Positions 10,043 to 31,447 of a stretch of 64,000 bases of DNA are shown here, one piece after another. Within the stretch, counting starts at the first letter, position 1. Each line of letters starts with the position of its first letter. Under the pieces are notes generated by a model. That model ran no database searches, was not told the DNA's origin, and worked only from the letters and a program-made list of their open reading frames with translations. The stretch lies in the NCBI GenBank assembly GCA_039033515.1, contig JBCCCM010000012.1:2710-66709 (forward strand), written 5' to 3'. The DNA comes from Pseudomonadota bacterium. Its GTDB lineage: Bacteria > Pseudomonadota > Alphaproteobacteria > Sphingomonadales > Sphingomonadaceae. The position numbers and the translations under genes are program-made.

Positions 10043-12235
10043 ATGGCAGAACTCGTAATCCGTCGCGGCCTTGAAGAGCCCGAAACCGGCGAAGACTTCA
10101 CCCCGCACCGCCCCGCCCGGCCCGAAAAATCGATGCCGGGCAAGCGGTTCGAAATCGTCTCGGATTACGAACCCGCGGGCGATCAGCCGACCGCGATCGC
10201 TGAACTGGTTCAAGGCGTTCACGAAGGCGACAAGACCCAGACGCTGCTCGGCGTGACCGGCTCAGGCAAAACCTTCACCATGGCCAAAGTGATCGAGGAA
10301 GTGCAGCGCCCCGCCCTGATCCTGGCGCCCAACAAGATCCTCGCCGCGCAATTGTATGGGGAGTTCAAAAGCTTCTTTCCCAACAACGCGGTCGAGTATT
10401 TCGTCAGCTATTACGACTATTACCAGCCCGAAGCCTACGTGCCGCGCTCCGACACGTATATCGAGAAAGAGTCGAGCGTGAACGAGGCCATCGACCGGAT
10501 GCGCCACTCGGCCACGCGCTCTTTGCTGGAACGCGATGATGTGATCATCGTCGCCTCGGTTTCGTGCCTCTACGGGATCGGTTCGGTCGAGACCTATTCG
10601 GCCATGATCTTCGACATCAAGAAAGAGGAGACCGTCGACCAGCGAGAGCTGATCCGGAAACTTGTTTCCCTCCAATACAAGCGCAACGACGCCGCCTTCA
10701 CTCGTGGGTGTTTCCGGGTGCGTGGGGACACTCTAGAAATCTTCCCCAGCCACTACGAAGACATGGCTTGGCGCATCAGTTTCTTCGGCGACGAGATCGA
10801 GGAAATCGCTGAATTCGACCCGCTGACCGGCAAGACCGGCGCGAAGCTCGACCGAGTGCGGGTCTACGCCAACTCGCACTATGTGACGCCCGGCCCGACG
10901 ATGAAGCAGGCCAGCGAAGCGATCAAATTCGAGCTCGCCGAACGTTTGAAAGAGCTGGAGGCGGAGGGAAAGCTGCTGGAGCACCAGCGGCTCGAACAGC
11001 GCACCCATTTCGATCTGGAAATGATCGCGGCGACGGGCAGCTGCAACGGGATCGAAAATTATTCGCGCTTTCTCACCGGACGCCTGCCGGGCGAGCCGCC
11101 CCCCACCCTGTTTGAGTACTTGCCTGAAAACGCACTGCTCTTCGTCGATGAGAGCCACCAGACGGTGCCGCAAATCGGCGCGATGGCGCGCGGCGACCAC
11201 CGGCGCAAGATCACGCTGGCCGAATACGGCTTTCGCCTGCCCAGCTGCATCGACAACCGCCCCTTGCGCTTCAACGAATGGGACGCGATGCGCCCGCAGA
11301 CCTTCTGCGTCTCGGCCACCCCCGGCCCATGGGAGCTGGAGCAAACCGGCGGTGTCTTTGCAGAGCAAGTCATCCGCCCCACTGGCCTGATCGACCCCCC
11401 CGTCGAAATCCGCCCGGTCGAAGACCAGGTGCAAGACTGCATCCAGGAATGCCTCGCCACCGCCAAGAAGGGCTACCGCACCCTTGTCACCACGCTGACC
11501 AAGCGGATGGCCGAAGACCTCACCGAATTCATGCACGAGGCGGGCGTGCGGGTCCGCTACATGCACTCCGATGTCGAGACGCTTGAGCGTATCGAGCTGA
11601 TCCGCGACCTGCGCCTTGGCGTCTATGACGTGCTGATCGGGATCAACCTTTTGCGCGAAGGCCTCGACATTCCCGAATGCGGGCTGGTGTGCATTCTGGA
11701 CGCGGACAAGGAGGGCTTTTTGCGCTCCGAAACGTCGCTAGTGCAAACCATCGGTCGCGCCGCGCGCAACGTCGATGGCCGCGTGATCCTCTACGCCGAC
11801 CGCATCACCGGATCGATGGAGCGCGCGATGGCCGAAACCGACCGCCGCCGGGCCAAACAAGAGGAATACAACAAAGAGCACGGCATCACGCCCAAGACGA
11901 TCAAGCGCGACATCGCCGACATCGTCGCCGACACCGCAAGCCAGGACGGCGTGGTGGTCGACACCGGCGATGACGAGGTCAACAATCTCGTTGGGCACAA
12001 TCTGCGCGCCTATATCGAAGACCTCGAAAAACGCATGCGCGACGCGGCGGCGAACCTTGAGTTTGAAGAGGCCGGACGCCTGCGCGATGAGATCCGCCGG
12101 TTGGAGAACGACGAGCTGGGTCTGCCGGATAACGAGAAGAAGGCGCCCAAGGTTGGGCGGTCGGATGCAGGTAGGCCGGGGACGCGCAAGGTTCGCGGGA
12201 AGGCGCGATACAAGCGGATGGGTGGGAAGCCTTGA
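10043..12235 (+). CDS. uvrB: Excinuclease ABC subunit B
   Basis: [10 protein letters not shown] Walker [11 protein letters not shown] beta-hairpin, DESH, C-terminal UVR domain. Confidence 0.99.
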
Positions 12236-12574: not shown

Positions 12575-12687
12575 CGTCATGCTGAACTCGTTTCAGCATC
12601 CATCGCCCGCGCGAAGTTGCGGATCTAGAGCCGGAGATGGACCCTGGAAGCGGAGCTGGCCATCGGCCAAACAAGTTCAGGGTGACG
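12575..12687. repeat. MITE/REP-like palindromic element
   Basis: Terminal inverted repeats cgtcatgctgaact and agttcagggtgacg (12/14); internal 8-bp hairpin atgctgaa/ttcagcat (12579-12599). Confidence 0.8.
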
Positions 12688-22379: not shown

Positions 22380-23437
22380 GCCATGCGAGCATGACCCTTC
22401 GACACGCTCAGGGTGAGCGGGAGACACTTGGCGTAATCGGCGCGGGCGCCTGGGGAACCGCCCTTGCACAGATGCTAGCCAGCGATGACCGCGATGTACG
22501 CATCTGGGCTTACGAGCCCGAGGTGGTCGAGGCGATCAACACCGAGCGTCGCAACCCGCTCTACCTGCCCAGCGCTCAGCTTGCGCCCTCCATCCGGGCA
22601 ACCGGCGATCTGGCGGATCTGGCCAGCGTCGATATCGCATTGGTCGTAACGCCCGCGCAGGTCATGGGCCGCGTCTTGGAGGGCCTGCCCGCCGCACCGC
22701 GCGACCTCGTGCTGTGCTCCAAAGGGATCGAAGCGGGCACCGGGCGGCTCATGAACGATGTCGCGCGCGCCGCTTGCCCGAACAGCGAGATCGCGGTGCT
22801 TTCCGGCCCCACCTTCGCGCACGAAGTCGCCGCCGGGCTGCCCACCGCTGTCACCCTCGCCTGCGCGGGCGGAGAGTCGCAATGGGAGCGCCTGTCCTCC
22901 GCCATCGCCCGGCCCGCCTTCCGCCCCTATTACTCCGATGATGTTACCGGCGCGGAGATCGGCGGGGCGATCAAGAACGTCCTCGCCATCGCCTGCGGTC
23001 TGGTCGAAGGGCTTGGCCTTGGCCAAAACGCGCGCGCGGCGCTGATCGCGCGCGGGGTCGCGGAAATGCTGCGCTTTGGAGAAGCTCTGGGCGCGCAGGC
23101 CGAGACGCTTTCAGGCCTGTGCGGCATCGGCGATCTGGTGCTGACCTGCACGTCCACCTCCAGCCGCAATTTCTCGCTGGGCAAAGCGCTGGGCGAAGGG
23201 GCGAGCGCAGCTGATCTGATGGCCGACCGCCGCACCGTGGCCGAAGGGGCGCACACCGCGCCCGTCCTCGCCGATCTCGCCGACAAGCGCGGCATCGCCA
23301 TGCCGATCATGACCAGCGTGCACGCCATCCTCGAAGGCGCGCCGCCGCGCGATGTGGTCGCGCAATTGCTCGCGCGCCCGCTTACCGCTGAAACGCCGAG
23401 CGATGCCCTGTCGTGGGAAAAAGAGCCACGTTTGTGA
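22376..23437 (+). CDS. gpsA: NAD(P)H-dependent glycerol-3-phosphate dehydrogenase
   Basis: GAGAWGTALA, SGPTFAHEV, GAIKNVLAIACG, GDLVLTC...SRN. Confidence 0.97.
   Translation: MSHASMTLRHAQGERETLGVIGAGAWGTALAQMLASDDRDVRIWAYEPEVVEAINTERRNPLYLPSAQLAPSIRATGDLADLASVDIALVVTPAQVMGRVLEGLPAAPRDLVLCSKGIEAGTGRLMNDVARAACPNSEIAVLSGPTFAHEVAAGLPTAVTLACAGGESQWERLSSAIARPAFRPYYSDDVTGAEIGGAIKNVLAIACGLVEGLGLGQNARAALIARGVAEMLRFGEALGAQAETLSGLCGIGDLVLTCTSTSSRNFSLGKALGEGASAADLMADRRTVAEGAHTAPVLADLADKRGIAMPIMTSVHAILEGAPPRDVVAQLLARPLTAETPSDALSWEKEPRL
22395..22420 (+). repeat. REP half-element inside the gpsA coding region
   Basis: cccttcgacacgctcagggtgagcgg matches the REP at 29999-30024 at 23/26; translated as LRHAQGER. 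Confidence 0.75.
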
Positions 23438-28523: not shown

Positions 28524-29759
28524 GTGAACGCCCCCTTCAATTCGCCCCACGCTGAAACCGAGCAACGAGACCCGAGCGCCGGGATCGTCCCGTTCAACTG
28601 GGAAGACCCGTTCGATCTGGAAAACCAGCTCACCGAAGACGAGCGCATGATCCGCGACGCGGCGAACGCCTTTGCGCAAAGCGAGCTGCAAAGCCGCGTG
28701 ATCGAAGCGTACCGCAACGAGGTTTCCGCGCCCGAACTCTTCCCGCTGATGGGACAGGCCGGCGTGCTCGGCGTCACCATTCCCGAAGAGTTTGGCGGCG
28801 TTGGCGCATCCTATGTCGCCTACGGCCTCGTCGCGCGTGAGATTGAACGCGTCGACTCAGGCTACCGCTCCATGGCGAGCGTCCAGTCGAGCCTCGTGAT
28901 GCACCCGATCTACGCTTACGGATCGGACGAGCAGCGCGCCAAGTACCTGCCCGGCCTTGCGAGCGGCGAACTGATCGGCTGCTTCGGCCTGACCGAACCC
29001 GATGCCGGCTCCGACCCGGCGGGCATGAAAACCTACGCCAAGAAGGACGGCGATGACTACGTGATCTCAGGGTCCAAAACCTGGATTTCCAACTCGCCCT
29101 TCGCCGATGTCTTCGTCGTCTGGGCCAAGAGCGAAGAGCATGGCGGCGGCATTCGCGGCTTTATCCTTGAAAAGGGGATGGAAGGCCTCTCCGCGCCCAA
29201 GATCGAAGGCAAGATCTCGCTGCGCGCCTCGACCACCGGCATGATCATGATGGACGAAGTCCGGGTGCCCAAAACCGCGCTGCTACCGCATGTTCAGGGC
29301 CTCAAAGGCCCGTTCGGCTGCCTCAACCGCGCGCGCTACGGCATCAGCTGGGGCGCGATGGGCGCGGCGGAATTCTGCCTCTACGCCGCGCGCCAATACG
29401 GCCTCGACCGCAAGCAGTTCGGTCGGCCTCTGGCGGGAACGCAGCTTTATCAAAAGAAGCTCGCCGACATGATGAGCGACATCGCGCTGGGCCTTCAAGC
29501 TTCGCTGCGCGTCGGTCGCCTGATCGATGAAGGCCGCTTCAGCCCCGACATGATCAGCATCGTGAAGCGCAACAATGTCGGCAAGGCCTTGGACATCGCG
29601 CGACAAGCCCGCGACATGCACGGCGGCAACGGCATCTCCGAGGAATACCAAGTCATCCGCCACGCGGTGAACCTGGAGACGGTCAACACCTACGAAGGCA
29701 CACACGACGTCCACGCGCTGATCCTTGGGCGCGGGATTACGGGGATTGCGGCGTTTTGA
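28524..29759 (+). CDS. gcdH: Glutaryl-CoA dehydrogenase-like acyl-CoA dehydrogenase
   Basis: [51 protein letters not shown]. Confidence 0.88.
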
Positions 29760-29840
29760 ATGGAGGTGTTGCTTCCAGAGGTCGAAAGGCTGTCGTTCTG
29801 AAAGCGACGTCAAAAGATACAAAGCAAGCAAGTTCCACGT

Positions 29841-30024
29841 CCGCTCAGCCAGAGCTTGTCGAAGGCTATACGCAAAGCTCTCAATAAAGGGCTGTTTGGC
29901 CTCGCGATACATACTAAAAAGCAACACCGAGCGTCATACTATCCTCCTGCAAAAATGAAGCAAAGAACAGCAGTCACTGCGGCTGGCGTTGGCGCGTGGC
30001 CTTCGACAGGCTCAGGCTGAGCGG
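29841..30024. repeat. Inverted pair of 26-bp REP elements enclosing a 132-bp AT-rich spacer
   Basis: ccgctcagccagagcttgtcgaaggc (29841-29866) matches the reverse complement of 29999-30024 at 24/26. Confidence 0.85.
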
Positions 30025-30027
30025 AAC

Positions 30028-30219
30028 CTGTTCACTGGCGGCTCAGCCTTTTGCCGTCGTTATGGTCTCAACCGACTGGTCCATGCCCAGCCCCACCCTG
30101 AAATCGCCGACGCCAACGCGAGAGAAAAGGCGATGAAAGCATGGAAGCGCGCGTGGAAGATCAAGCTGATCGACAAGAGCAACCCGGAATGGCACGACCT
30201 GTTCGACACCAGCCCCTGA
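30028..30219 (+). pseudogene. 5'-truncated GIY-YIG nuclease family gene
   Basis: GSAFCRRYGLNRLV...A.AREKAMKAWKRAWKIKLIDKSNPEWHDLF is the typical C-terminal part; the N-terminal GIY/YIG motifs are absent. Confidence 0.82.
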
Positions 30220-30227
30220 CCGCTAGC

Positions 30228-30251
30228 GATCCCAGCTTTCGCTGGGATGAC
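30228..30251. repeat. REP-like hairpin (second family)
   Basis: atcccagc-tttc-gctgggat followed by gac, 9 bp after the GIY-YIG remnant stop. Confidence 0.75.
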
Positions 30252-30372
30252 GTCGAAAACTGGCAGGAATTGCCTAGTTACTAATTTGTAGTGCTGGCAA
30301 TAAGCAAGAAGCGGACTGGCGGCTAACGACTCAACTCCGGTCATTTGCGCGGAAACAGTTTCCTGCCATAGC

Positions 30373-31200
30373 TTGGTCATGTCGTCACATCGCAATCCCG
30401 CGCGCCGCAGTCGCAATATCGGAACGTCAAAGCAGGGACATGGCCAAGACAATTCTTTGGTAATCCCCGACAGGTCAGATGGTCGTTACTGGCTCGATAG
30501 CATTGGCGATTGCCAAATCGAAGATCATGTGATCGCAAGTCGCACTGTTCGCTTTATCGTTGAGCAAAATGCACTTGGGTGTGTGCATCCGTGCAGCGTT
30601 CAAGATGTGGTTTGGATGCTAAAAGCGCTCCCGCAAAGCGACTGGGCTGGATTGGATACGATTGTGTTCAGACAACCCACACGTAAACAGCTTATCCTGT
30701 CTCCAGTTTGGGGAAGGCTTCTCTATTTTTCTGAAATCGCAACCGCGAAAGGGCAGCGTTTGGCGAGTGGGCCGGCAATATTTCTAGACGCAATTAAGCC
30801 TGACCAGACCATCAAATGGAGCACATCCCTTGATCCCGATGACTCGAAGGAATTGGAGAGGTTGATCGAGGACGGACATCAAGTGCAAAGATCGGGGCGA
30901 AAGTTCAACATCACGGTGAGCGCACTCTCAGCCCGAAACACCCAACTCTACAGAACCCTGTTACACGAAGTTGGCCATTGGTTTGACTGGCTTTCGAAGG
31001 TTGAAGGGCCAGCTTGTAAGGGTAAAGATTGGGAGCGACTGGAGCAGTCCTATTTCTCCCGCCCGAAAGCAGAGCGAGAAGCCTTCGCTCACCGCTATGC
31101 AGATGAACAACGCAGATTGCTGACATCCAAAGGCATCATTCCGTTTGGGCAACAGTGCACTGAAGCAATGTCCACATCCCCCCATTTTCGGCCTCTATAG
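30373..31200 (+). CDS. Low-GC hypothetical protein with HExxH motif (putative zinc metallopeptidase)
   Basis: 275-codon ORF; LLHEVGH; about 45-50% GC in lines counted versus about 65% in flanking genes; start uncertain. Confidence 0.7.
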   Translation: MVMSSHRNPARRSRNIGTSKQGHGQDNSLVIPDRSDGRYWLDSIGDCQIEDHVIASRTVRFIVEQNALGCVHPCSVQDVVWMLKALPQSDWAGLDTIVFRQPTRKQLILSPVWGRLLYFSEIATAKGQRLASGPAIFLDAIKPDQTIKWSTSLDPDDSKELERLIEDGHQVQRSGRKFNITVSALSARNTQLYRTLLHEVGHWFDWLSKVEGPACKGKDWERLEQSYFSRPKAEREAFAHRYADEQRRLLTSKGIIPFGQQCTEAMSTSPHFRPL

Positions 31201-31447
31201 CGCTCGATCACTTCGCTTGAGGATAGACAGCAAGGTAATTCTCCCCAAAACCACTGGCCGCGCTCACTTGGGCGAGAAATGGGCCACTGTCCTACAGCCT
31301 ATTTGTCCGCTAGAGATCGGACGAGATGGCCATGAATCAAACTCCAACAATGCGCGTACCGCTGCGATCCAAAACCGCCGGAATTCCGCCAATTTTTCTT
31401 CCCCTGGACCGTGTAACACGTGGTCCATGTCTCGGGGCGCTCAGGTC

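Follow-up and report, generated by a model that had tools for sequence, protein, structure and literature searches.

The locus examined here raises the question of how a gene for a small GIY-YIG protein came to lose its 5′ part next to a palindromic repeat, and of what this gene and the repeats around it are to each other. It lies within the 64-kb stretch of DNA that was analyzed (the window), in the slot between gcdH and maiA, and the locus as a whole is probably the debris of two small nuclease-plus-repeat elements in this strain-variable slot. An earlier note on this DNA had described an inverted pair of REP elements, a GIY-YIG gene without its N-terminus beside the REP edge, and a different hairpin 9 bp past the stop codon. 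All three descriptions held, with the pair having 37-nt arms that are 84% complementary and cores that differ at two positions, the gene matching only positions 34–92 of a family profile of 93 positions, and the stem of the hairpin lying at 30229–30236 / 30241–30248.

Homology at the protein, profile and DNA levels identified the gene (30037–30219, plus strand) as a 5′-truncated Ssn-type GIY-YIG gene, hereafter type-1, which retains residues ~35/36 to 94 and the stop codon of a 94-aa family. The ORF that contains it (29989–30219) encodes 76 aa, the first 16 of which are, as the alignment revealed, an arm of the inverted pair in translation. A protein search with the 76-aa ORF returned 385 proteins, nearly all of them 87–97 aa in length with PF01541, and these relatives are hosted by Erythrobacter, Qipengyuania and other Sphingomonadales. 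The 94-aa PF01541 proteins share 81–84% identity with the ORF over its last ~58 residues only, with the homology starting at their G36-S37-A38, and the profile, which was built from 75 intact relatives, matches the window with an E-value of 5e-31. No Pfam or NCBIfam match was obtained for the 76-aa ORF on its own, and a profile search found no type-1 N-terminal piece in the six frames of 29760–30260 or elsewhere in the 64 kb. At the DNA level, homology to intact type-1 cassettes runs from 30040 to 30252–30258, beginning 11–14 nt past the end of the right arm at 30025.

The active site of GIY-YIG nucleases, formed by the tyrosines of the GIY and YIG motifs, an arginine and a histidine, falls in the N-terminal part of the fold. 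The remnant at 30037–30219 has neither the GIY nor the YIG tyrosine, nor the arginine or the histidine, and because these catalytic residues are gone it cannot be a nuclease. In addition, it carries the substitutions E52Q, I61N and E80D, the original residues being kept in 99%, 100% and 93% of the 75 relatives, respectively, which is drift as expected of a sequence released from selection. The gene is a pseudogene, a remnant rather than a working member of the Ssn family, and it falls outside the description of that family as single-domain GIY-YIG proteins of ~90–150 aa, while its intact relatives are 87–97 aa long and carry PF01541. The label Ssn-type is used here on the grounds of size, PF01541 and hairpin layout, whereas Chenal and colleagues (2025, Nat Commun, PMC11893778) define the family by a top CDD match to cd10448, or by a blastp E-value <1e-10 to the N. 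meningitidis SsnA (CAX49033.1).

Downstream of the stop codon (30217–30219) stands the cognate 3′ hairpin, an SRM/NTS-like element and CGTC-1-type REP at 30225–30252, which reads CGTCATCCCAGCGAAAGCTGGGATCGCT on the minus strand. Its stem is a perfect 8 bp closed by a 4-nt loop and starts 9 nt past the stop, and the DNA fold of 30229–30248 reaches −8.9 kcal/mol (z −2.6). Only one copy of the hairpin was observed within the 64-kb window, and the 5′ hairpin of the ssnA cassette is absent. No Rfam family was detected in 29600–30500, and a promoter and terminator scan yielded nothing, so that a terminator role of the hairpins is not supported.

The comparison set consisted of 79 loci with intact type-1 relatives, covering 1.36 Mb, of which 77 have enough flank. 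In the intact layout observed there, a hairpin is followed after 29 nt by the 94-codon GIY-YIG gene, which is followed after 15 nt by the inverted hairpin; these are median distances, from the hairpin CGTCATCCCAGCGAAAGCTGGGATCGC to the start of the gene and from the stop to its reverse complement. The hairpin was found on both sides of the gene in 63 of the 77 loci, on one side in nine and on neither in five. Most of the 20-kb type-1 loci contain exactly two copies, and among the 181 copies detected in the 1.36 Mb with at most three mismatches, 140 flank a type-1 gene while 41 are located elsewhere. Erythrobacter sanguineus DSM 11032 harbors at least seven hairpin-ssnA-hairpin cassettes in differing contexts (L001, L003, L008, L011, L014, L015 and L019). 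In six of seven copies the ATG is replaced by ATC, and three contain in-frame stops, suggesting that most of them are inactive.

The link between such nucleases and hairpins is known and has been in print since 2025 (PMC11893778), and the ssnA locus is mostly a known kind of selfish DNA. Ssn GIY-YIG proteins flanked by SRM motifs were reported across phyla, with Sphingomonadales named among the hosts; Ssn proteins bind the CGTC-tagged hairpins in ssDNA, and four purified homologues cut only ssDNA, on one strand, just upstream of the hairpin; the NTS-ssnA-NTS layout was likened to IS elements and to REP/RAYT, and restriction of transforming ssDNA was reported as the role of Ssn in Neisseria (PMC11893778). 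The type-1 loci of the relatives resemble the Ssn/SRM system (SsnA of Neisseria meningitidis) in having a small single-domain GIY-YIG gene between inverted CGTC-tagged hairpins. They differ from the Ssn/SRM systems with hundreds of copies in that the hairpin of these Erythrobacteraceae is mostly restricted to the flanks of the gene, and the window copy differs further, being a 5′-truncated pseudogene with the 3′ hairpin alone. Of the 28 positions of the Neisseria NTS consensus CGTCATTCCCGCGMAVGCGGGAATCYRG, the window hairpin shares 21, and two compensated pairs account for the four differences in the stem. The published SRM pattern, HGTCWYN(0-2)YYVSBRHN(0-5)WNVSBRGN(0-2)RNCYNB, has no match in the window, the hairpin missing it by one base in the tail. 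The window hairpin also shares the CGTC tag, an 8-bp stem starting with AT, the 4-nt loop and an alphaproteobacterial host with the CGTC-1 REPs of Di Nocera, De Gregorio and Rocco (BMC Genomics 2013, PMC3733652), from which it differs in its tail (CGC instead of CCA). The CGTC REPs were said there to “lack a dedicated transposase”, and the GIY-YIG gene that they flank was not noticed (PMC3733652). Small GIY-YIG nucleases as the partners of these alphaproteobacterial palindromes answer the question, raised in 2013, of the CGTC REP enzyme, and the ssnA locus adds that nuclease-repeat cassettes decay and get truncated, and that they sit in strain-variable slots. Judged on sequence, 30037–30252 is a decayed SRM-ssnA-SRM cassette with only its 3′ end kept, and very probably it would be the 3′ part of a Ssn-type cassette whose 5′ hairpin, leader and codons 1–35 are gone.

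A pair of a second CGTC-tagged hairpin was observed at 12577–12683, consisting of CGTCATGCTGAACTCGTTTCAGCATCCA and a degenerate inverted partner just upstream of a short higB-like stump; it belongs to a SRM-like family distinct from the hairpin at 30225–30252.

On the 5′ side of the remnant lies the inverted pair, here named REP1, with its left arm at 29840–29876 on the plus strand (core CAGAGCTTGTCGAAG at 29850–29864) and its right arm at 29989–30025 on the minus strand (core at 30001–30015). The arms are separated by a spacer of 112 nt (29877–29988) with 49% GC and no gene. The 25-nt REP1 core, CCTTCGACAGGCTCAGGCTGAGCGG, has three copies in the window with at most two mismatches, and not a single match was obtained in any of 100 shuffled windows. 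The third copy is a solo unit on the minus strand at 22396–22420, within the gap of 0–60 nt from the tsaD stop to the conserved start of gpsA. It is read as ‘TLRHAQGER’ if an upstream ATG of gpsA is used, and it probably accounts for a gene start that is extended in error.

In the 79 type-1 loci the REP1 core is sparse, with 18 matches (at most four mismatches), usually as inward-facing pairs. In two of these loci, L010 (1538–1849) and L033 (10470–10715), a REP1 pair encloses a gene, and the products are GIY-YIG proteins of 81–103 aa, hereafter type-2, which are only 36% identical to type-1. The type-2 proteins match the UPF0213 structures 1zg2 and 1ywl with E-values of 2e-13 and 1e-10, compared with 1.5e-5 and 0.4 for type-1. 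Over 50 nt (88%), the right REP1 arm of the window and its inner flank align with an arm and the leader of the type-2 cassette that L033 (Qipengyuania) carries. A scan of metagenome contigs with the type-2 proteins of L010 and L033 revealed 80 loci, 73 of them with enough flank, and in 61 of the 73 the type-2 gene lies between inverted REP1 cores, one of which stands a median of 28 nt ahead of the start, while the other overlaps the 3′ end of the gene or comes directly after it. A further 73 REP1 units were found away from the flanks of type-2 genes in the 453 kb of these metagenome loci. The statement in the earlier note that small GIY-YIG genes often sit beside palindromes is borne out, by the 140 of 181 hairpin copies that flank a type-1 gene and by the bracketing of type-2 genes by REP1. 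The term ‘REP’ covers two repeat types here that cannot be exchanged for each other, the hairpin pairing with type-1 and REP1 with type-2. By its sequence, then, REP1 is a repeat family other than the downstream hairpin, and its predicted GIY-YIG subfamily is absent from the window.

The structure of REP1 was deduced from 102 distinct units and consists of a 5-bp stem, 94.9% paired, around a conserved 11-nt loop, GAGCYTGTCGA. The stem displays 107 double-sided changes at three positions, a number reached by none of 500 shuffles, and shifting the structure by one to three columns did not give this result either. Single REP1 units fold no better than shuffles, and the stem is therefore supported by covariation and not by folding energy. 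The units often stand tail-to-tail with a spacing of ~20 nt. Inward-facing pairs are bimodal in their spacing, with 24 pairs below 80 nt, which have no gene, and 62 pairs at 250–400 nt, which have one, and the core-to-core distance of 136 nt in the window falls between these two usual modes. Profiles of both subfamilies found no type-2 remnant in any frame of the spacer or of 29760–30260. A minus-strand reading of the spacer as the N-terminal end of a GIY-YIG gene, with an RBS-like AGGAGG, an ATG and the peptide ‘F*YVSRGQTALY’, was considered and rejected, as both subfamily profiles match nothing there. Since the spacer holds no trace of type-2, a decayed cassette is not established over two independently placed REP1 units. 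Whereas a REP1/UPF0213-like cassette has a gene of 81–103 codons between its inverted repeats, the window has a REP1 pair with no gene. With good confidence, such a gene-less inverted pair would have taken the place of the missing 5′ part of the ssnA cassette, its repeat being one that elsewhere brackets a UPF0213-like GIY-YIG gene.

The type-2 proteins have the same size and single domain as the members of UPF0213 / COG2827 (1zg2 BH0048, 1ywl EF2693 and the E. coli YhbQ type), for which no repeat partner is described in the literature searched; of the two parts, the window has the REP1 pair and not the gene. In the literature searched, neither the REP1 core nor a pairing of REP1 with GIY-YIG genes was found, and no paper emerged that ties GIY-YIG to ‘repetitive extragenic palindromic’ sequences or to UPF0213. 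The pairing of REP1 with type-2 genes appears undescribed but the same kind of thing as Ssn/SRM. It adds a second repeat family in which the loop is conserved and the stem is free, a different recognition logic, and which is tied just as closely to a GIY-YIG subfamily of its own. Should biochemistry confirm the pair, the known range of ssDNA nucleases that recognize both sequence and structure would grow, and there would be a handle on the spread of the very common ‘SLSKG / FDKLR’ repeats, which corrupt gene annotations. The likeness to REPtrons (REP plus RAYT), which have an enzyme gene between inverted repeats and scattered gene-less pairs, is clearest for REP1. However, the enzymes are GIY-YIG nucleases instead of HUH/Y1 transposases and the repeats are CGTC-tagged or untagged instead of GTAG-tagged, and no HUH/Y1 transposase gene between GTAG-tagged REPs is present at the locus. 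We tentatively suggest, as a conjecture that might well prove wrong, that REP1 and the UPF0213-like genes could form a second, undescribed nuclease-repeat system parallel to Ssn/SRM, that the gene-less pairs might be its non-autonomous copies, and that recombination at their ends might truncate neighbors, in this case a rival Ssn cassette.

In Qipengyuania sp. 902, the 3′ Ssn hairpin of L033 (10290–10350) has a 24-nt insertion in its loop, and a complete REP1-flanked type-2 cassette (10419–10808) follows ~90 nt past the Ssn cassette, so the two systems stand in tandem.

The genomic surroundings were compared with the closest genomes. The gene upstream of the REP1 pair, gcdH (28524–29759), encodes a glutaryl-CoA dehydrogenase with Pfam Acyl-CoA_dh domains and is 97–98% identical in these genomes, where homology stops at 29759–29809 and resumes at 31251–31281. 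The slots compared with 29760–31280 of the window were L160 (6177–7770), L162 (6177–10066) and L161 (6231 onward). As the sisters carry other genes between the shared flanks, the 1.45-kb segment is strain-specific; it was delimited to 29810–31250 by blastn against L160, L161 and L162. The GC content of the segment is ~50–59%, against ~63% in gcdH, and with GC below that of the flanks the break may have occurred in another genome. Neither the hairpin nor REP1 occurs in the slots of L160, L161 and L162; an intact ssnA locus at this site was found in none of the sister genomes, and none of the 79 cassettes lies beside gcdH. No related locus overlaps the window. The segment also contains orf275 (30373–31200, plus strand), whose hypothetical product displays the HExxH motif HEVGH. 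Its module is 91% homologous to L163 from 30308 on, orf275 homologues occur alone at other places in other genomes, and no ssnA gene was found next to any of them. The slot is hypervariable, one sister containing a 333-aa abhydrolase and another a 693-aa TPR protein with two small ORFs.

At the junction, 11 nt of filler (30026–30036) separate the right REP1 arm from the remnant, and the octamer GCTCAGCC follows at 30041–30048. The same octamer forms the outer end of REP1 at 29843–29850 (direct repeat D1). The ssnA homology starts at GGCTCAGCC, codons 36–38, where the octamer is present in only two of 72 type-1 relatives. A possible, though doubtful, origin of the truncation would be illegitimate recombination at the shared GCTCAGCC, with the outer REP1 end as one partner and codons 36–38 of ssnA as the other, which would have deleted the 5′ part of the cassette. 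In such an event a third REP1 unit would recombine, at its outer end, with codons 36–38, with loss of that unit, the 5′ hairpin and codons 1–35, and this would leave exactly the filler of 11–14 nt that is observed. The microhomology route to the truncation, as read from the sequence, is a hypothesis with modest support, and an identity of 8 nt is weak evidence of a mechanism.

The main competing reading, to which we give about the same rather low probability as to the recombination step, is that the two elements are chance neighbors in an insertion hot spot, the ssnA fragment having been broken beforehand, perhaps in another genome, or cut by an ordinary deletion, and REP1 merely adjoining it. 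The wholly different cargo of the sister gcdH–maiA slots, the lowered GC of the segment and the occurrence of the orf275 module alone in other contexts are in line with this reading, and so is the frequency with which REP1 approaches type-1 genes. REP1 was found within ~150 nt of a type-1 cassette in two of the 79 loci (L033 and L049), where ~0.5 pairs are expected at raw background, a rate uncorrected for the preference of repeats for intergenic DNA, so that this is not clearly an enrichment. Of the enrichment of REPs beside GIY-YIG genes that the earlier note had in mind, the part concerning the hairpin is very strong in the relatives, whereas the part concerning REP1 beside type-1 is not clear. 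However, chance proximity sits poorly with a gene homology that begins within 11–14 nt of a REP1 arm, and exactly at an octamer common to the end of REP1 that so few relatives have, and with the presence of a REP1 pair or cassette so close to the Ssn cassette in both L033 and L049.

A less likely reading casts the GIY-YIG nuclease in the role of a RAYT-like transposase of the palindromes, with an activity that makes bounded deletions, of which the ssnA locus and the higB stump would be examples. The layout is indeed IS-like or REPtron-like, the cassettes of E. sanguineus are repeated in differing contexts, gene-less REP1 pairs are common, the higB stump likewise abuts a CGTC-type pair, and the same analogy was raised by the authors of the Ssn study (PMC11893778). 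Against this, no Ssn or UPF0213 protein is known to transpose or to make deletions, and the published role in Neisseria is the restriction of transforming ssDNA (PMC11893778). In contrast to RAYT-spread REPs, the hairpin has few copies other than those beside its gene (41 in the 1.36 Mb of relatives), and the two cut sites predicted for a cassette would lie on opposite strands, unlike the single-strand excision of the IS200/IS605 type. Moreover, the local gene is dead. The proposal of the earlier note that GIY-YIG proteins mobilize or cut REPs therefore stands as far as cutting is concerned, through the biochemistry of Ssn (PMC11893778), while RAYT-like mobilization has architectural analogy only. 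REP-bounded deletions generated by GIY-YIG proteins are a hypothesis, to which the 8-nt microhomology at the junction is the sole pointer.

It is very improbable that the assembler made the junction, from a copy of REP1 and a piece of ssnA that belong to different places or organisms. The window apparently comes from a metagenome-assembled genome, both repeats are at high depth in a marine metagenome run (X1), and the Logan unitigs break at them. Word depths in X1 are ~1170 for the hairpin, ~565 for the right REP1 arm and 15–22 for the flanks, values that are totals over every organism sampled rather than copy numbers. Compact REP1 pairs with spacers of 16–17 nt are also present in X1, and both repeats recur in relatives. 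Nevertheless, one independent Logan unitig from X1 (depth 22) spans 29998–30252 without a difference, starting within the right REP1 arm, crossing the junction and reaching the hairpin; the neighboring unitigs are of similar depth (14.6 and 16.8). Because this unitig crosses the junction between REP1 and the gene, the junction is real and no assembly join. Least probable of all is a functional, domesticated DNA-binding fragment encoded by the 76-codon ORF at 29989–30219, whose frame is open and which retains most of the conserved C-terminal residues, for translation would have to begin at a TTG within the REP1 arm, no promoter-like site was detected, three of its residues are replaced at positions conserved at 93–100%, and the same truncated form appears among the 385 proteins only as two database fragments.

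Some minor observations concern the edges of the segment. The protein encoded by orf275 is a member of a ~260-aa hypothetical family common in Sphingomonadales in unrelated contexts, and its match to Tox-MPTase3 is weak (E 0.01) and below the cut-off. A motif named REP3, GCTGTCGTTCTGAAAGCGAC, lies on the plus strand at 29789–29808, just past the gcdH stop, where sister synteny ends, and a second REP3-like motif, GCGGACTGGCGGCTAACGAC, lies at 30311–30330 (plus strand) at the left edge of the orf275 module. The pattern, GCNGNC-N3-4-CNG-N4-CGAC, marks the left edges of strain-variable modules, and it may serve as a target for insertions or delimit a cassette. It is also found ahead of an orf275 homologue in L164 (3935–3954), and in 11 of the 79 type-1 loci (within L001–L037), where ~0.15 would be expected by chance, it precedes the start of ssnA by 71–91 nt.
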